Below are positions 1 through 5,303 of a DNA stretch of 5,303 nt, piece by piece (positions within the stretch are counted from its first letter, which is position 1; every line of letters begins with the position of its first letter). Made by a program: the position numbers and the translations under genes. The stretch is from a virus: IMG/VR virus record IMGVR_UViG_3300022670_000052, positions 1 to 5,303 of that record. The stretch is one strand, 5' to 3'. The notes under the pieces were generated by a model. The model ran no database searches, was not told the origin of the DNA, and was given only the letters and a program-made list of their open reading frames with translations.

Positions 1-144
1 ACGCACGCTCATCGACGTGGATCGTCGGGAAGCGTAGGAGGGCCATTATCCAGAGCCCACCATGTTCAGGAAAGAATTTACGACGGAATGAAAACTTTCC
101 GACAACTGAGCTTTTTCCCGAATGGGATCCAAGAGCAGCATCGT
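1..144. repeat. Terminal direct repeat, copy 1 (linearisation or assembly overlap of a circular genome)
   Basis: Read base by base, 1..144 (acgcacgctcatcgacgtgg...aagagcagcatcgt) is identical to 5160..5303. The repeat sits exactly at both window ends and lies inside the capsid coding frame. Confidence 0.95.
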
Positions 145-883
145 CAGTTCCATCAACGTCATAGCCGCTAAGCCAGAAACGGTTGCGGCCAATAAGGGTC
201 GGCCGCTGATCAGCGTCCGTATTGACCGTCGACCCGAACGCGGTGTTGAGAATGTCATTGTATCGTTCACCGAAATAAGTCCGATCGACATCAGTTGAAT
301 ATTGAGCTTGCACACGGTTCAGATCCGCGATGTCAAAGCTGGTAGTAGACGGCACATCCCTGAAAGAAGGGTCGACCCCTTCAGTGACGCCCGTAGACCA
401 CGGCGTAGGCAGATAACCGCATTTACGACCGGCGACACGCTCGGCGGAAGTAGTAAGGACCTCATCACCAACAAGTTCTTCGTTGTCAGTGGGCGACCGG
501 AAGTACCGGTTCCAGATGTCATTGTAACCAGCCGAGACCCAGCTCGGGAACTGTTCATTGTCAAGATAATGAGTTCCCATGTAGTCAAGCTCCTGCAGGG
601 AGCTTTGTGAAGGGAAGGTAACCGTATTACGGAGACCGTCCTTGATGAAATCAATCCAGTCCTCGCCATAAGTATGACGATGCGGGACATAGAACGCAAA
701 GAGATCGACATTACAGTCGACCACTAGCGAACGCCGTAACGGCGAAAGGCGGAAAACCCCTTCGAGGTTAAGCGACATACTGTCGCCCGCCATAACAGGA
801 ATTAACGACAAGGTTTGAAGCTTGCCGATATCACCTGCAGAGAAGGAGAAGTGAGAAAGATCACAGCGATACCGCTTGGCCAT
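1..883 (-). CDS. F: Major capsid protein F, N-terminal 294 codons; the CDS continues across the circular junction into 5159..4780
   Basis: I translated this by hand. The ATG is at 883..881, preceded by GGAGG (897..893), and there is no stop down to base 2. The track omits it because it runs off the window edge. The translation begins MAKRYRCDLSHFSFSAGDIGKLQTLSLIPVMAGDSMSLNLEGVFRLSPLRRSLVVDCNVDLFAFYVPHRHTYGEDWIDFIKDG. Further on it contains FWLSGYDVDGTDDAALGSHSGK and FFPEHGGLWIMALLRFP. These align with remembered phiX174 F segments DLSHLGFLAGQIGRL, PVIAGDS, LRLSPLRRGL, FYVPHRHVYGEQWIKFMKDG, LWASGYDVDGTDQTSLGQFSGR and FFVPEHGTMFTLALVRFP. Confidence 0.95.
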   Translation of the reverse strand, partial: MAKRYRCDLSHFSFSAGDIGKLQTLSLIPVMAGDSMSLNLEGVFRLSPLRRSLVVDCNVDLFAFYVPHRHTYGEDWIDFIKDGLRNTVTFPSQSSLQELDYMGTHYLDNEQFPSWVSAGYNDIWNRYFRSPTDNEELVGDEVLTTSAERVAGRKCGYLPTPWSTGVTEGVDPSFRDVPSTTSFDIADLNRVQAQYSTDVDRTYFGERYNDILNTAFGSTVNTDADQRPTLIGRNRFWLSGYDVDGTDDAALGSHSGKSSVVGKFSFRRKFFPEHGGLWIMALLRFPTIHVDERA

Positions 884-1026
884 TAGAACTTTCCTCCGCC
901 CTGATAGTACTTTTTGGGCGATTTGCCGACAGAACGAACAGATTTTCTCGAAGTCGTGCCGCCCTTACGGCGGCCTTTCGAATTCCGACGAGACTTCTTG
1001 GAGTAGCTTCTTCCACGACTAGGCAT
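883..1026 (-). CDS. J: Small, highly basic DNA-binding/packaging protein J (47 aa)
   Basis: Hand translation gives MPSRGRSYSKKSRRNSKGRRKGGTTSRKSVRSVGKSPKKYYQGGGKF, with 17 of 47 residues K or R. The C-terminal YYQGGGKF resembles phiX174 J ...LWYVGGQQF. GGAGG (1040..1036) lies 9 nt upstream of the ATG at 1026..1024. The start overlaps the D stop (ATGCCTAG) and the stop TAA (885..883) overlaps the F ATG (TAATG). Its position between D and F matches phiX174. It is below the length cutoff of the ORF track. Confidence 0.88.
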   Translation of the reverse strand: MPSRGRSYSKKSRRNSKGRRKGGTTSRKSVRSVGKSPKKYYQGGGKF

Positions 1027-1525
1027 CAGATTTAGCCTCCAGAGGTTGCGCATCACCGATCACGTCCCGAAGGGCACGACCGGTGCGCTTGCGCCATTGC
1101 GCCTGACCAGCAGGAGCAAGGCCATAGAGCATGCAACATAGCCCGAAGAGCTTCTGGGCAGTCACAGACTCAAGAGAACCGCCAAACGATAGGTTTTCAG
1201 CGGTAGGACCAGTTTCAAGCCACCGGCATGCTACAGCAATGTTACCGGGAGCACAGAAAGTAGTAATTATCCCGGCACGATATTCAGCAGGGACTTCAAT
1301 CCGGGGCAGACCAAGGACGTCAAGTACGCCGTGGGTAAGAGTGTTAAGCACAGCGCTAACTCTCGTACGATCAGAGCCAATCCAAGGTATGCTATCACAG
1401 CACAGATGAAAGTCATCGTCAGAAATACCAAGGCTCTCAAAGGCATCATTAACGCTTCCATTTTTAATCAGCTCCATACAGTTTTTTGCGACTTGAAAGG
1501 ATACTTCAGTACGCTCAGAACTCAT
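1019..1525 (-). CDS. D: External scaffolding protein D (168 aa)
   Basis: The segment DDDFHLCCDSIPWIGSDRTRVSAVLNTLTHGVLDVLGLPRIEVPAEYRAGIITTFCAPGNIAVACRWLETGPTAENL aligns with remembered phiX174 D segment EDDFDFLTSNKVWIATDRSRARRCVEACVYGTLDFVGYPRFPAPVEFIAAVIAYYVHPVNIQTACLIMEGAEFTENI. An AAAGG Shine-Dalgarno-like motif lies 8 nt upstream of the ATG. The start overlaps the preceding stop as ATGA, as at the phiX C/D junction. Confidence 0.93.
   Translation of the reverse strand: MSSERTEVSFQVAKNCMELIKNGSVNDAFESLGISDDDFHLCCDSIPWIGSDRTRVSAVLNTLTHGVLDVLGLPRIEVPAEYRAGIITTFCAPGNIAVACRWLETGPTAENLSFGGSLESVTAQKLFGLCCMLYGLAPAGQAQWRKRTGRALRDVIGDAQPLEAKSDA
1267..1461 (-). CDS. Candidate single-gene lysis protein (E-like by architecture, no sequence similarity); 64-aa membrane-type ORF nested in the +1 frame of D
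   Basis: It has a true ATG at 1461..1459, with GGAG 10 nt upstream. The product is MEALMMPLRALVFLTMTFICAVIAYLGLALIVRELALCLTLLPTAYLTSLVCPGLKSLLNIVPG. It contains an uninterrupted hydrophobic stretch of about 23 aa (ALVFLTMTFICAVIAYLGLALIV) and a second hydrophobic segment. It lies wholly inside D on the same strand, in the same relative frame (+1) as phiX174 E within D. Confidence 0.45.
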   Translation of the reverse strand: MEALMMPLRALVFLTMTFICAVIAYLGLALIVRELALCLTLLPTAYLTSLVCPGLKSLLNIVPG

Positions 1526-1770
1526 TTATTTAACCTTTCCAGAAGGCGAACGTTGAACGCGCCAACATCCTCAAGCGAACGCCGGAGGATTTGTTTATGT
1601 ATACCCGTGTGCATTGAAGCAACGTACATTCCATGGATCGCAGTAAGAAGAAGATCCATTTCCTTGACCATCCAAAGATCATCATCGGGCCGGAGCGTGA
1701 CAAGTTCCGCCGGCTTGCGCGAAGCGTTTCTCATCCCGTCCAAAGACTGTTTCAAACTGCCGGATAACAT
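1522..1770 (-). CDS. C-position small protein (82 aa); probable DNA-maturation protein C analogue (K-versus-C assignment is ambiguous)
   Basis: It fills the slot between A/B and D. Its stop overlaps the D start (ATGA), as the phiX C stop does. Its ATG overlaps the B stop (TGATG). Codons in this frame are mostly purine-initial, which looks coding. Its size is 82 aa, against 86 aa for phiX C. I see only weak similarity (DDDLW versus DEEKW). Confidence 0.6.
   Translation of the reverse strand: MLSGSLKQSLDGMRNASRKPAELVTLRPDDDLWMVKEMDLLLTAIHGMYVASMHTGIHKQILRRSLEDVGAFNVRLLERLNK
1530..1685 (-). CDS. Hypothetical 51-aa overlapping ORF whose ATG is coupled by ATGA to the A stop
   Basis: Hand translation gives MMIFGWSRKWIFFLLRSMECTLLQCTRVYINKSSGVRLRMLARSTFAFWKG. 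The ATG at 1685..1683 overlaps the A stop TGA at 1684..1682, which is the phiX174 A-stop/C-start arrangement and the same frame as B. It lies entirely inside the 82-aa ORF in another frame. The W/F/C/R-rich composition looks like an off-frame product, so this is a weak call. Confidence 0.25.
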   Translation of the reverse strand: MMIFGWSRKWIFFLLRSMECTLLQCTRVYINKSSGVRLRMLARSTFAFWKG

Positions 1771-3265
1771 CAGAAGCGGCCGTTTTGTTCAAACTCGGCG
1801 TCTCGGTATTCGTAGAATTCGGCGAGTTGGAGTTGGTCGTCGTCCGCATCAAAGACCGCAACCGCGCGACGATAGGCGGCCGTGGAGCCACGGCCAGGAG
1901 CAATTTCCGTGCTGTCGACTTGACCCAGCCATTCGGCTCGATGTCGTCCATCTCGGACTTCTTCCGTTTCAGGAGGATCTTGAGCATTATCAACCGGCAC
2001 ATCGTCTCCGGTATCTTCATCTCCCGTGGGTGGAGCAACTGCCGGATTTTCCCGTGGTATTTCAGGACTTCCAGTAAAGATTCCGTCTCGCACATCTCGC
2101 TCGCGCGCCAGATCCGCTGCTGACCGAACCCTCTCGACATTCTCGTCCGCCATTGTTCATTCCCCTTGTCGGATGCATAGGATTTCGTAATGTATTTAGC
2201 CAAGTAGAACGCCAGAGCCGCCGGAGGCTTCGCCGTGATCGGCAACTTATTCTTAACCGGCCAGCGCCAACCAAGGCGCCCGAAGGGGTCTTCTCCAGAG
2301 AACCTAGCGGCAGTGGGCATCGACCAGCCATAGGGCCAGAACTCTCTTAAAGGATCAATAATCCGTTTCTCAGGTACTGCAGAGCCACGATTAGGGTCCC
2401 GCTTCCAACTAGGCGGGATTTCCTTCATCAAATGAACCACATGGATATGGAGACGGCCAGCACGACTGCCCCGCTCGACCACACCAAAGTATGTATGATA
2501 GGGTGATTCCACTCGAAGTTTTGCAGCTTTCGGTATACTACCATGAACCAGACTACCAACGATCCGATCAATATCTCGGATGTAGAACGCCCATAAACGA
2601 GATCCGGTTTCAAAAACCTTTGTATAGTCTTCGTTACGGACGGTGAGAGTGTTGAAAACACAGTACCATCCTTGAGACACACGAAGTTCAATCTCTTCTT
2701 TAAGACGCCAGGACATTTCAGAGACACGGGCCTGTAATCCTTTCTTCTTTACCTTAGCCATGGCATCGAGGATCCATTCCTCAGTGCCACTAGAAGGTTT
2801 TATATTAACTACATCGCCGAATATTTCTTCGGCCATTTGTACGGGGGAACCCATATTTTTCAGCTCTCTACGGATGACAGACAGTAATTCATCTTCATCG
2901 CTGTACCACTCTCCCGTGGTGGGGTCAACCAAACCATCCAATTGCTTGGCGTCGGAGACGTGCTCCGACAAGTGAGTGAGCTTCGCTCCCTCTGCGGGAA
3001 GTGTTTTCAAGCTCTCGTGGGGTTGGGTTGTTAAGGAGGTGTTATCAAGTAGACACCTGAGATGCCCAAGATGGGACAGTATAGGGGCCGCTGCGAGGGC
3101 GGAGAGGCCCCAGTCAGTCCGAAGTTGCCCTTCGGTGGACCTACCCTCAAGCCAGGACAGTTGCTTCTGTATGAGCCGCATACGGCTGTTAATCGCATTG
3201 CTGACACGAAAGAGTGGGTCGGCGGCAGATAGCTCGCCGACCGTAAGTGATTCTTGAAGGTTCAA
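1682..3265 (-). CDS. A: Rolling-circle replication initiator protein A (HUH endonuclease). The maximal ORF is 527 aa; the start is uncertain between TTG at 3265 and the first ATG at 3181
   Basis: The HUH motif GRLHIHVVHLM (DNA 2432..2449) matches phiX GRLHFHAVHFM. The twin catalytic tyrosines AFYLAKYITK (2183..2206) match GFYVAKYVNK. Other matches are GWYCVFNTLTV versus GWFIVFDTLTL, WPYGWSMP versus WPYGYSMP, GWRWPV versus GWLWPV, and RTRMSRGFG versus RIRMSRNFG. The TTG at 3265 has GAGGA 8 nt upstream and overlaps the H stop. The ATG at 3181 has no Shine-Dalgarno motif. I could not call an internal A*-type start. Confidence 0.93.
   Translation of the reverse strand: MNLQESLTVGELSAADPLFRVSNAINSRMRLIQKQLSWLEGRSTEGQLRTDWGLSALAAAPILSHLGHLRCLLDNTSLTTQPHESLKTLPAEGAKLTHLSEHVSDAKQLDGLVDPTTGEWYSDEDELLSVIRRELKNMGSPVQMAEEIFGDVVNIKPSSGTEEWILDAMAKVKKKGLQARVSEMSWRLKEEIELRVSQGWYCVFNTLTVRNEDYTKVFETGSRLWAFYIRDIDRIVGSLVHGSIPKAAKLRVESPYHTYFGVVERGSRAGRLHIHVVHLMKEIPPSWKRDPNRGSAVPEKRIIDPLREFWPYGWSMPTAARFSGEDPFGRLGWRWPVKNKLPITAKPPAALAFYLAKYITKSYASDKGNEQWRTRMSRGFGQQRIWRASEMCETESLLEVLKYHGKIRQLLHPREMKIPETMCRLIMLKILLKRKKSEMDDIEPNGWVKSTARKLLLAVAPRPPIVARLRSLMRTTTNSNSPNSTNTETPSLNKTAASDVIRQFETVFGRDEKRFAQAGGTCHAPAR
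1770..2153 (-). CDS. B: Internal scaffolding protein B (127 aa), fully nested in gene A in the +2 frame
   Basis: The C-terminus QLQLAEFYEYRDAEFEQNGRF matches remembered phiX174 B C-terminus RIQPAEFYRFHDAEVNTFGYF. It has an ATG at 2153..2151, with AAGGGG 8 nt upstream. The body is acidic. It ends 88 nt before the A stop; by my memory of phiX coordinates the equivalent distance there is about 85 nt. Confidence 0.88.
   Translation of the reverse strand: MADENVERVRSAADLARERDVRDGIFTGSPEIPRENPAVAPPTGDEDTGDDVPVDNAQDPPETEEVRDGRHRAEWLGQVDSTEIAPGRGSTAAYRRAVAVFDADDDQLQLAEFYEYRDAEFEQNGRF
2917..2944 (-). other. Candidate viral-strand replication origin, option 2
   Basis: The minus strand reads CAATTGGATGGTTTGGTTGACCCCACCA, matching CAACTTGATA at 7 of 10 positions. 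It encodes QLDGLVDPTTGEW at A residues 108-120 (TTG numbering). That is nearly the same residue index as phiX QLDINNTIDHRPEGDEKW, and the spacing to the GW(F/Y) motif is similar. Confidence 0.25.
3017..3052 (-). other. Candidate viral-strand replication origin (nick site), option 1
   Basis: The minus strand reads CTACTTGATAACACCTCCTTAACAACCCAACCCCAC. The first 10 nt match the phiX174 minimal cleavage decamer CAACTTGATA at 9 of 10 positions. ACTTGATAACAC equals phiX ACTTGAT[ATTAAT]AACAC with a 6-nt gap. It lies in the N-terminal third of A, as the phiX origin does. The predicted nick is between minus-strand positions 3046 and 3045 (G/A). Confidence 0.4.
3217..3242 (-). other. GC-rich stem-loop just downstream of the H stop (8-bp stem GGTCGGCG/CGCCGACC, 10-nt loop)
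   Basis: Read directly: 3235..3242 pairs with 3217..3224. On the minus strand it is followed by CACTCTTTCG, which is only a weak T-tract. It lies between the H stop and the first ATG of A, which is the only stretch of the genome that could be non-coding. Confidence 0.35.
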
Positions 3266-4143
3266 CGAGCCATTCCTCGCACGGACGATTGAGAGCCTTT
3301 GAAGGCTTTGAGGGCACCCTTGGCTAAGCCAGCGATGCCCATAGCCTGGAAGACACCCGCGAGCTCGCCCTTAGCAAGGCCGAGACCACGGATCCAGGAC
3401 ATGTTTTCACGTACCCATTTAGTCAGATCAGTATCAGCACCAGAGATTCGAAACGCTCGAGCGCGGATCGCCGCGGCCGCGGCGTCGGTGAGGGAGCTGA
3501 ACTCCTTCCCGATATGAGCTGTAGCCAGCTCTTTTTTGATCCACATTTCTTGATGTTTAGTAGCAGCATTTTCCCAAGCAGCTTCAGCTTGTTTTTCTTG
3601 AGCAGCGACGCCACGGAACCCGACACCAGGGCCGGGACCGGCGCCGCCAGCAGTCTCGCCAGTAGCGATCCAGTTACCGGCCGGCACCACATTGGCCGAG
3701 CCGATCTTATCAGCATGAGCAACGGCCGCAGCGCGGCCTTGAATTTGAGCATTCGATTGTTGAACCGCGACCTGATTGGCCGCGATAGATTTTTGAGTAG
3801 TTTGTTGAGACGTCGCCACAGACGACTGAGTGCGCGCCATGCGCTTAGACGAATTATCCTGAACCTGGGCAGTCATAGCTTGCCCGATAGGATTTCCAGC
3901 ACCTAGACGTTCCCAAGGGTTTGTCCCAGGGAACGCCTCATTATAATACTCTCGGGCTTGAACGCCCTGCGCACCTCCAGTTTTTGGAACGGTGAGACCC
4001 TGAGCGGATGAACCCGCCAGAGCAGTACCGACGGCGCCACCAAAGGCGCCCCCGGCAGCCCCACCGAAGTAGGTCCCGACCGCAGTACCAGCGGCCGGGA
4101 GGATAGACTTGAAGGATTTGAAGACCTTTGAGAAGAAGCCCAT
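3262..4143 (-). CDS. H: DNA pilot (minor spike, DNA-ejection tube) protein H, 293 aa
   Basis: The N-terminus is Gly-rich and hydrophobic (GTAVGTYFGGAAGGAFGGAVGTALAG), like phiX MFGAIAGGIASALAGGAMSKLFGGG. REYYNEAFPGTNPWERLGAG matches phiX RDYLAAAFPELNAWERAGAD. The central region is Q/A-rich and looks helical. The ATG overlaps the G stop (TAATG). Its position after G matches phiX174. Confidence 0.92.
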   Translation of the reverse strand: MGFFSKVFKSFKSILPAAGTAVGTYFGGAAGGAFGGAVGTALAGSSAQGLTVPKTGGAQGVQAREYYNEAFPGTNPWERLGAGNPIGQAMTAQVQDNSSKRMARTQSSVATSQQTTQKSIAANQVAVQQSNAQIQGRAAAVAHADKIGSANVVPAGNWIATGETAGGAGPGPGVGFRGVAAQEKQAEAAWENAATKHQEMWIKKELATAHIGKEFSSLTDAAAAAIRARAFRISGADTDLTKWVRENMSWIRGLGLAKGELAGVFQAMGIAGLAKGALKAFKGSQSSVRGMAR

Positions 4144-4778
4144 TAGCGATTAGGATCAAAGGGCGAGAGATCCTCCTCGTAGCGTTGGATCCCGACAGAC
4201 TGAAACCAGTCGTCGAACGTAGCCACATCAGCACCGCTATTAGCGACCACGAAGCCGAAGATTAGATCAGTTTGCCGCTCCTCATCGAGACGGCCAAGCC
4301 AGTTACCAGTAAGCGTCGTCATATTGACGCCAGCAGCAAGGGGACCGCGACCAGACGCGGAACCACCAGAGTTTGAAGTATCGGTATGAGGGATCAAGGT
4401 CCAAGAGGCCAAGATACCCTCGCTTTCACCACTATTTTCACAGTGACCGAGAAGAGCGAAGACATCCACATCGTCATCCGACGAGAAGATACGCATGGCG
4501 CCAGACACGCCGAACAGATATTGCCGGTTCTCAATCAGAGACCGGGAATTGATTTTTACACCAAGAAGGATAGCCTCCGTTCCATTGAGAGTAAAGGAGC
4601 CGACCTGACGTGACGAGTGAGCATTCACGCCCTGAGGCGCGATAGCATCACCGACCACTAGATAACGGATAAACCCGAGAGCGCCAGCAGCGGCCTCGAT
4701 ATCCGTACCATTTATTAACAGCTCTTGATTCTCCATATTGGAGATCTGAGCCGGACCGATCCGATTGATACGGAACAT
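4143..4778 (-). CDS. G: Major spike protein G (211 aa), assigned mainly by position
   Basis: It lies between F and H as in phiX174. GGGAG (4789..4785) is 6 nt upstream of the ATG at 4778, which sits 1 nt after the F stop. It starts MF.. like phiX G. The only weak motif resemblance is near the C-terminus (LIFGFVVANS versus VYVGFMVWSN). It is longer than the roughly 175-aa phiX G. Confidence 0.7.
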   Translation of the reverse strand: MFRINRIGPAQISNMENQELLINGTDIEAAAGALGFIRYLVVGDAIAPQGVNAHSSRQVGSFTLNGTEAILLGVKINSRSLIENRQYLFGVSGAMRIFSSDDDVDVFALLGHCENSGESEGILASWTLIPHTDTSNSGGSASGRGPLAAGVNMTTLTGNWLGRLDEERQTDLIFGFVVANSGADVATFDDWFQSVGIQRYEEDLSPFDPNR

Positions 4779-4779
4779 A

Positions 4780-5303
4780 TTAGACTCCCGCGTACAGAGA
4801 AGAACGAGAAGGAGGAACGGTGCGTTGGCAGCTAATATCTAGCCTGCCAGCCACGTTCCAGTGACGAAGTTGATTTGTCTGGAAGACGTCATCGTACTCC
4901 GTGTCGCCAACATAGTTGGCTTTGTCTTGTGTATCGATTGGAGTATCGATGAAAGAATAACCGTCCAGAACTTTGTATAGACGGTGAACGATATTCGGAT
5001 GATATCGGTAGTGTTGTCCGAACGGGATAGCGCCGAAGCCGCTACCAGAACCGTTCGAAAAGAAGTCTGCAGGAACCATGTCCACAGGAGGCTCAGCAGA
5101 TACCAGAGCAGGATCACCCGCTTGCTCCAGGTAGGAGGCATCAACTTGTTGAAGGAGGAACGCACGCTCATCGACGTGGATCGTCGGGAAGCGTAGGAGG
5201 GCCATTATCCAGAGCCCACCATGTTCAGGAAAGAATTTACGACGGAATGAAAACTTTCCGACAACTGAGCTTTTTCCCGAATGGGATCCAAGAGCAGCAT
5301 CGT
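4780..5303 (-). CDS. F: Major capsid protein F, C-terminal part; 5160..5303 duplicates 1..144, and the stop TAA is at 4782..4780
   Basis: The track ORF 4780..5205 is in frame with the 883..2 reading frame (44..46 equals 5203..5205). The joined product is 420 aa, against about 426 aa for phiX174 F. The C-terminal segments AGDPALV, QHYRYHPNIVHRLYKVLDGYSFI and QLRHWN resemble phiX AGDPVLY, QWYRYAPSYVSPAYHLLEGFPFI and QLLQWN. Confidence 0.93.
   Translation of the reverse strand, partial: DAALGSHSGKSSVVGKFSFRRKFFPEHGGLWIMALLRFPTIHVDERAFLLQQVDASYLEQAGDPALVSAEPPVDMVPADFFSNGSGSGFGAIPFGQHYRYHPNIVHRLYKVLDGYSFIDTPIDTQDKANYVGDTEYDDVFQTNQLRHWNVAGRLDISCQRTVPPSRSSLYAGV
5160..5303. repeat. Terminal direct repeat, copy 2
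   Basis: Identical to 1..144. The offset between the two copies is 5159 nt. Confidence 0.95.

Follow-up and report, generated by a model that had tools for sequence, protein, structure and literature searches.

The stretch of DNA analysed here (hereafter the window) is the IMG/VR virus record IMGVR_UViG_3300022670_000052 over its full length of 5,303 nucleotides (nt), and what it carries is the genome of a microvirus with the gene plan of phiX174, i.e., gene A with gene B nested inside it, an open reading frame (ORF) in the slot of gene C, and genes D, J, F, G and H, in the order A(B)-C slot-D-J-F-G-H. An initial annotation of this DNA had already recognised that full plan, which was confirmed, but had omitted that the minus strand encodes all of the genes; the viral (+) strand thus corresponds to the window read as its reverse complement. 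The GC content of the genome is 52.8%. No host genes and no integrase were found in the window, the scans of it for tRNA and Rfam families were empty, and the dif-like site that bounds a prophage of the same lineage (see below) is absent from it.

The two ends of the window, positions 1-144 and 5160-5303, are 100% identical at a spacing of 5159 nt in a self-comparison, which bears out the terminal identity of 144 nt previously claimed. The left copy lies inside gene F and the right one repeats it, so that the true genome unit is 1-5159. Gene F, encoding the major capsid protein, starts at position 883 and occupies 1-883 with its codons 1-295, continuing on the circle at 5159, where its 3' part (4780-5159, codons 295-420 and the stop) completes one uninterrupted ORF of 420 amino acids (aa); with the junction falling in codon 295, the proposal that the circle was cut inside gene F and that the capsid frame runs across the ends is correct. 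An overlap of the same 144 nt is also present on at least 10 unrelated IMG/VR contigs (projects 3300022670, 3300022690 and 3300023223), which identifies it as a k-mer overlap left by the assembler on a circle, and not as a biological terminal redundancy. Public data contain this genome twice: in a contig at JGI, of 5303 nt like the window, and in a contig of 5189 nt with a 30-nt overlap in the Logan assembly of the run SRR7467840, the latter being base-for-base identical to the window over the 5159-nt unit and broken at window position ~1069, so that it reads through the 5159/1 junction of the window. No publication on the sample accessions was found in the literature. An independent assembly with a different break thus yields the circle that the initial annotation had taken for a complete phiX174-type microvirus.

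Taking this together with the gene content and the trees described below, it is highly probable that the window represents a single full copy, circularly permuted, of the 5,159-nt single-stranded DNA (ssDNA) genome of an uncultured lytic microvirus, belonging to the phiX174-type lineage and, within it, to the pequeñovirus-like radiation. The lytic lifestyle is deduced from the absence of host flanks, dif-like site, integrase, and tRNA or Rfam matches in the window. There are relatives in which a genome of this lineage is found as a concatemer of four units or as an integrated prophage, and it could be argued from them that a prophage, a tandem concatemer or a chimeric assembly, instead of a free circular genome, gave rise to the repeat. 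However, the window consists of exactly one unit plus 144 nt, the second assembly (that with an overlap of 30 nt) arrives at the same circle with its closure elsewhere, and every base is coding within one coherent gene set that includes no host gene and no dif-like repeat, which leaves that explanation a practically negligible chance. The 5159-nt circle, the single-jelly-roll capsid protein of the F/VP1 type (Pfam Phage_F, 212 bits) and an A protein with the HUH motif and the tyrosine pair all place the free circular genome in the Microviridae (Petitvirales), whose ssDNA virion state it would presumably share.

The capsid protein F is 36-41% identical to the F proteins of phiX174, G4 and WA13 (an alpha3-like phage), with an overall identity to phiX174 of 38.6%. 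Its best stretch of 75 residues reaches 61.3%, in agreement with the ~60% that had been estimated by eye for about 75 residues. The internal scaffolding protein B (1770-2153; 127 aa), encoded within A in the +2 frame, scores 28 bits against Pfam Phage_B, above the cut-off, through its C-terminal 32 residues only (LAEFYEYRDAEFEQNGRF at the C-terminus, compared with PAEFYRFHDAEVNTFGYF in phiX174), and a profile iterated over the relatives reaches the B proteins of phiX174, G4 and WA13 with E-values of 1e-24 to 1e-29. The external scaffolding protein D (1019-1525; 168 aa) is recognised by Pfam gpD (55.4 bits, for a cut-off of 25) and by PHROG 1386 (121 bits), and is 29-32% identical to the D proteins of the same three phages. 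The DNA pilot protein H (3262-4143; 293 aa), with a Gly-rich N-terminus, matches Pfam Microvir_H (27.8 bits, for a cut-off of 22.7) and PHROG 1471; its identity to H of phiX174, G4 and WA13 is 27-35% over a patch, and the iterated profile reaches Bullavirinae H with E-values of 1e-43 to 1e-46. As for the DNA-binding core protein J (883-1026; 47 aa), no significant BLAST or Pfam match was obtained, and it was assigned by its place between D and F, its composition (17 Lys or Arg and no acidic residues) and its C-terminal tail (YYQGGGKF, compared with LWYVGGQQF in phiX174), which is kept in the six closest genomes, L007-L011 among them. Its start was set at an ATG preceded by GGAGG, the longest ORF extending back to 1056.

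The rolling-circle replication initiator A (1682-3265; 527 aa) matches PHROG 713 with 260 bits, scores 29 bits (below the cut-off) against Pfam Phage_GPA and is 27-38% identical to A of phiX174, G4 and WA13. It retains the HUH motif at aa 273 (RLHIHVVHL, for RLHFHAVHF in phiX174) and the Y-x3-Y tyrosine pair at aa 354/358 (FYLAKYITK, for FYVAKYVNK). Its TTG start is unusual, and it is supported by the overlap between the stop of H and the start of A, which is kept in five relatives (as ATGA in three, TAATG in one and TTGA in one).

The predicted viral-strand origin lies inside A, in its N-terminal part (3023-3052, minus strand), and reads CTACTTG/ATAACACCTCCTTAACAACCCAA (full 30-mer, from 3052 to 3023, CTACTTGATAACACCTCCTTAACAACCCAA), for CAACTTG/ATATTAATAACACTATAGACCAC inside gene A of phiX174. 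Nine of its first 10 bases match the phiX174 origin; the 20 nt downstream of the core have diverged, giving 16 matches over the 30 positions. The core CTACTTGATA (3052-3043, minus strand) keeps the codon frame found in phiX174, G4 and WA13, and the heptamer ACT[TA]GAT occurs only once in the whole window genome. Among 41 genomes of the lineage, 29 (phiX174, G4 and WA13 included) carry an in-frame core in the N-terminal part of A, which corresponds to 29 of the 49 ACT[TA]GAT heptamers present in those genomes. By analogy with phiX174, we infer that the target of A would be CTACTTGATAACACC, cleaved after the G, i.e., between positions 3046 and 3045. The cleavage core ACTTG/ATA of the A protein is a feature conserved across the whole phiX174-type lineage. 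Another candidate, at the codons for QLDGLV (CAATTGGATGG, around position 2945), was rejected, CTACTTGATA at 3052 being the one that fits the consensus of the clade. In the uncultured relative L024 (IMGVR_UViG_3300020042_011556), the origin 30-mer (CGACTTGATATTAATCTCCCTATAGACCAT) matches that of phiX174 at 25 of the 30 positions.

The gene that follows F (4143-4778; 211 aa) would, from its predicted fold, an all-beta barrel, encode the major spike protein G. The initial annotation had described G as essentially unrecognisable, and at the sequence level this holds: no BLAST, Pfam or PHROG match was found, tblastn against 50,697 GenBank phage records yielded nothing at E <= 0.01, and an iterated profile spanning 35 related genomes never reaches Bullavirinae G. 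The family itself (~200-220 aa) is large, with 232 representative clusters at 50% identity in an exhaustive profile search; word-indexed searches were poorer, recovering only the protein of the window when run with the single sequence and six when run with a profile. It is in the fold that the description fails. An AlphaFold2 model built on an alignment of 136 sequences (mean predicted local distance difference test, pLDDT, of 91.7; predicted template modelling score, pTM, of 0.89), which supersedes a first run on six sequences (pLDDT 59, with marginal Foldseek matches), retrieves the five solved microvirus G proteins as its top five Foldseek matches in the PDB: PJNS001 (9k3m), phiX174 (2bpa, chain 2), PJNS002 (9k3n), alpha3 (1m06, chain G) and G4 (1gff, chain 2), with E-values of 3e-8 to 7e-7, a probability of 1.0 and template modelling (TM) scores of 0.57-0.64 on the target, for an E-value of 5e-4 and a TM score of 0.2 in the sixth. 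The BFVD matches are headed by eight unnamed proteins (197-220 aa; TM 0.56-0.84), presumably pequeñovirus and Ciona proteins judging by their accession series and lengths, followed by G of Enterobacteria phage ID204. On the strength of this model, the G slot holds a true G-fold protein that has diverged past sequence recognition. The "hypothetical protein" after F in the window is thus predicted to fold like the phiX174 spike, and its model is closely matched by the pequeñovirus counterparts.

There is no intergenic DNA in this genome, each gene junction being an overlap or a gap of 1 nt. The stop of H overlaps the start of A (TTGA), that of B overlaps the start of the C-slot ORF by the last base of the B stop, that of the C-slot ORF overlaps the start of D (ATGA), D shares 8 nt with J, the stops of J and G overlap the starts of F and H, respectively, and a single nt separates F from G. 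This explains why the genome is smaller than that of phiX174, in which J-F, F-G and H-A spacers are present. Shine-Dalgarno-like sequences precede A, B, D, J (GGAGG), F (GGAGGA) and G. Such a fully coding genome might be a new element, and it would imply that the promoters and the complementary-strand origin lie inside coding sequence. The most stable local hairpins of the viral strand (about -26 kcal/mol per 100 nt, with z of about -2 to -3) are at 4005-4124 (minus strand), at the start of H, where GC-rich DNA encodes the Gly-rich N-terminus, and constitute the sole, weak candidate for a complementary-strand origin. The opposite strand contains an Arg-rich ORF of 248 aa (1331-2077, plus strand) that faces, in antisense, the stretch from the 3' end of A through B and the C-slot ORF into the 5' end of D. 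Long antisense and alternative-frame ORFs are frequent in this genome of 53% GC, and this one is presumably non-coding.

The C-slot ORF (1522-1770; 82 aa) begins at the final base of the stop of B, shares sequence with the 3' end of A and terminates at the D start. It spans from the position of the K start to that of the C end, with no separate K, and it may be regarded as C-like by position and size only. An ORF with the same boundaries is conserved in L007-L010 (82-101 aa), and ORFs of 93 aa occupy the slot in L049 and L050. The gene is not universal even in the near subclade: L001 (MH572352) and L011 lack a C-slot ORF of 30 aa or more in the interval separating A from D, and have instead a D ORF with an N-terminal extension (204-209 aa, for about 165 aa otherwise). 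A TTG-initiated ORF of 57 aa (1530-1703, minus strand) lies in a third frame over the C-slot gene, and in L008 and L010 hydrophobic ORFs begin immediately downstream of the stop of A, where C is located in phiX174; none of these is conserved in L007 or L009, so that they are probably spurious.

A second small ORF of the region is located within D, in the +1 frame (1267-1461; 64 aa), with GGAG upstream of its ATG and a transmembrane stretch, and might be a lysis gene, possibly a new one. No other alternative-frame ORF in the genome has a mean hydrophobicity over 19 residues above 2.1. Equivalent +1 transmembrane ORFs (41-99 aa) exist in D of L007-L011, L050 has one of 41 aa that clearly starts at the same site of D, and L049 a weaker one of 34 aa; in the more distant pequeñoviruses, none was found. 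The shared start ATG calls for caution, since it falls on a conserved Asn-Gly of D. With respect to E of phiX174, the frame is the same (+1), the part of D covered is different (codons ~22-87, for 60-152 in E) and there is no similarity. That the subclade formed by the window, L007-L011, L049 and L050 encodes its own single-gene lysis protein, overprinted in D and without similarity to E, is therefore a tentative proposal, which we regard as possible and rather doubtful. If true, it would imply that an "amurin" arose independently, or was relocated, within the very gene that harbours E in phiX174.

In tblastn searches of the GenBank phages, F is 53.7% identical to that of Microviridae sp. SD_SC_1 (MH572352, 5090 nt), 49.6%, 46.8% and 43.2% identical to those of pequeñoviruses from the Eel River basin, and about 40% identical to those of the Bullavirinae. 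In a collection of 5.8 billion protein clusters, 431 F homologues were found, the nearest with 68% identity, and about 30 of them, at 57-68%, are encoded on contigs of 5.0-5.4 kb, several of which come from NCBI whole-genome shotgun metagenomes and IMG/VR. In neighbour-joining trees (200 bootstraps, with p-distance-type corrections), the F proteins of the phiX174 type form an ingroup separated with 100% bootstrap from the VP1 of gokushoviruses (phiMH2K and SpV4). The window and SD_SC_1 fall in one subclade with 99% support for F and 92% for A, the window groups with L007-L011 with 96% for A, and the link to the Eel River genome KP087943 is weakly supported (24%). The window is therefore in a subclade of genomes of 5.0-5.4 kb, of which SD_SC_1 is the nearest named member, and through this clustering it would belong with the pequeñoviruses, an informal grouping without formal demarcation criteria.

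Pequeñoviruses were proposed in 2015 (Bryson) as a sister clade of the enterobacterial microviruses that possesses an external scaffolding protein, as cited in PMC6116155. Bullavirinae, Klebsiella prophages and pequeñovirus metagenome-assembled genomes were later united as Family 1 / Suborder I (Kirchberger 2022, PMC9239249), which is defined by the spike and the external scaffold (PMC9239249). The window fits this group, to judge from the monophyly of its F with the phiX174 type to the exclusion of the gokushovirus VP1 (100%, by neighbour-joining only), from the external scaffold D (gpD, 55.4 bits; PHROG 1386, 121 bits) and, by its modelled fold only, from a separate major spike G.

Could the window rather be filed inside Bullavirinae proper, as a new genus instead of a member of a separate pequeñovirus group? 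It does have the full gene plan of that subfamily, including D and the G-fold spike, and in the F tree the Bullavirinae crown nests in the pequeñovirus-like radiation instead of forming a clean sister to it, which makes the boundary a matter of taxonomy. Nonetheless, the crown group of the three ICTV genera is recovered with 100% support and with the window outside of it, in both F and A. The identities of the window to that crown (36-41% in F) are roughly half the within-subfamily values (66-81% among phiX174, G4 and WA13), the K and E homologues expected of Bullavirinae appear to be missing, and no link to an enterobacterial host was found. A place inside Bullavirinae thus seems very unlikely, and membership in the pequeñovirus-like radiation is preferred. 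The nearest neighbour of the Bullavirinae crown in the F tree is the uncultured L024, with a unit of 5054 nt.

Several observations weigh against this reading as a whole or against parts of it. The deep nodes of the neighbour-joining trees are unsettled and, with the Bullavirinae nested as they are in the F tree, the "sister clade" arrangement is unconfirmed. Among the expected genes, E and K have no homologues detectable by BLAST, Pfam, PHROG or hhalign, and for the C-slot ORF, Pfam, PHROG and hhalign all failed to reveal any resemblance to C or K of phiX174, G4 and WA13. The candidate lysis ORF is only marginally unusual when the synonymous codons of D are resampled (P = 0.058), and other genes of the relatives commonly show +1 frames that are open and hydrophobic. 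Likewise, a scan of the coding strand for consensus promoters and terminators gave nothing above the expectation from shuffled sequences, and sliding-window DNA folding of the viral strand, in search of a hairpin for the complementary-strand origin, gave nothing outstanding (best z of about -3.8).

The life cycle that can be proposed for this microvirus is drawn in all its steps from homology with phiX174. A would nick the origin CTACTTG/ATA inside its own gene and start rolling-circle replication, B and D would act as internal and external scaffolds for 60 copies of F and 12 pentamers of G in the formation of procapsids, the basic J would enter with the ssDNA, and H would guide the DNA into the host. 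The role of C would probably fall to the 82-aa ORF located between B and D, and lysis may come from the small membrane protein overprinted in D.

How new is this genome? It had been presented as a far-diverged, deeply novel lineage, newly extending the Bullavirinae branch beyond its enterobacterial cluster, and part of that description stands. The identities to cultured Bullavirinae are low (36-41% in F and 27-38% in A, against the 80-90% or more to phiX174, G4 or the alpha3 group at which the novelty was said to be lost), G has no sequence match in the GenBank phage records, and no DNA-level match longer than ~120 nt (this one in F) exists in 50,697 phage records. The extension itself, however, is already in print (PMC6116155, PMC9239249): the closer GenBank genomes, SD_SC_1 (53.7% in F) and those of the Eel River (43-50%), have been published as pequeñoviruses (PMC6116155), two genomes from the gut of Ciona having been assigned to that clade (Creasy et al. 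2018, PMC6116155), and Family 1 / Suborder I already covers this diversity (PMC9239249). In addition, about 30 public contigs are 57-68% identical in F and the exact genome is in the JGI and Logan data. The claim of novelty at the level of the lineage, hardly credible by now, is refuted by the F matches and the F tree, and the window adds a member, not a new lineage. Nor is its smaller size new, since SD_SC_1 has 5090 nt and the near relatives 5.0-5.4 kb, and the picture of phiX174-type phages as a tight enterobacterial cluster is outdated in view of the pequeñoviruses and of Vibrio phage vB_VpaM_PG19 (PMC9431446).

What the window contributes is one complete, annotated genome of a rare phiX174-type lineage, for which 60 Family 1 genomes were counted among about 13,000 microviruses (Kirchberger 2022, as summarised in PMC9865509). 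Raw public data contain far more of the lineage than the literature does, as the 431 F homologues and the 232 clusters of the G family indicate. The understanding of microviruses is left unchanged, and the genome is useful for annotation and for picking genomes to synthesise in the search for non-enterobacterial hosts.

Beyond the window, a Logan contig of 23.4 kb from SRR23272327 (L006) carries at 9012-14629 an integrated prophage of ~5.6 kb, with an F 45% identical to that of the window and a GC content of 36-45%, for 55-57% in the flanking DNA. A direct repeat of 15 bp (TCGCATAATATATAT), similar to a dif/XerCD site, delimits the prophage, which is inserted between recX and a gene for a DUF676 hydrolase, adjoining ntrY-ntrX-trkA-trkH-hfq-hflX. 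The synteny of the flanks looks alphaproteobacterial, and TrkH and NtrX from those flanks cluster, at 90% identity, with proteins from the metagenome-assembled genome of a "Proteobacteria bacterium" (MCR9213596/8). Two scans of 185,579 GTDB species genomes (F profile; P0107) retrieved no related prophages. A contig of 23.6 kb (ENA ERZ25069810 ctg131751; L004/L005) contains approximately four head-to-tail copies of a 5.9-kb genome of the lineage, with 43% identity in F, and is probably a rolling-circle or amplification concatemer, so tandem artefacts do occur among the relatives. A related F gene (41% identical) is also found in IMGVR_UViG_3300020050_002980, of 42,762 nt (L018). This contig would be either a further concatemer or an integrated copy, and might lead to a host.

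Regarding the systems already described, SD_SC_1 (MH572352.1, from the gut of Ciona robusta) is, like the window, a circle of ~5.1 kb with the order F-G-H-A(B)-D and a similar GC content (53.7%, for 52.8% in the window), and its G-slot protein is of the same family as the G of the window (phmmer E-value of 5e-11; TM of about 0.8 for the BFVD structure). Unlike the window, it has no C-slot ORF of at least 30 aa and no +1 transmembrane ORF in D, its D ORF has 209 aa, and its A and F are only 38% and 54% identical to those of the window. The Eel River pequeñoviruses (KP087943, KP087947 and NC_026665) share with the window the phiX174-type capsid protein, D, B nested in A, H and a G-slot protein of the same family, but they are genomes of 5.3-6.2 kb with real intergenic regions, extra small ORFs between A and D, a GC content of 31-48% and no +1 transmembrane ORF in D. 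The microvirus Vibrio phage vB_VpaM_PG19, cultured and non-enterobacterial, carries A with B nested in it, D, F and H; its closest F match is reported to be from an enterobacterial phage (46%), and it is reported to lack a G homologue (PMC9431446). According to its published description, it resembles the window in having an unannotated ORF in the G slot, namely ORF6, of 167 aa, directly after F (PMC9431446). Given that the G of the window is recognisable by fold only, ORF6 may, by analogy, be a diverged G.

The Bullavirinae, i.e., phiX174 (Sinsheimervirus), G4 (Gequatrovirus) and alpha3/WA13 (Alphatrevirus), are larger than the window genome (5386-6259 nt, for 5159 nt) and lower in GC content (45%, for 53%), and, as seen in phiX174, their spacers have no counterpart in it; G, C, K and E cannot be detected in the window by sequence, and there is no separate K. 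However, they have in common with it the gene order A-B-C slot-D-J-F-G-H, an A protein of the HUH/double-tyrosine type with the origin core ACTTG/ATA inside its gene, the C-terminus of B, the tail of J and the predicted fold of G.

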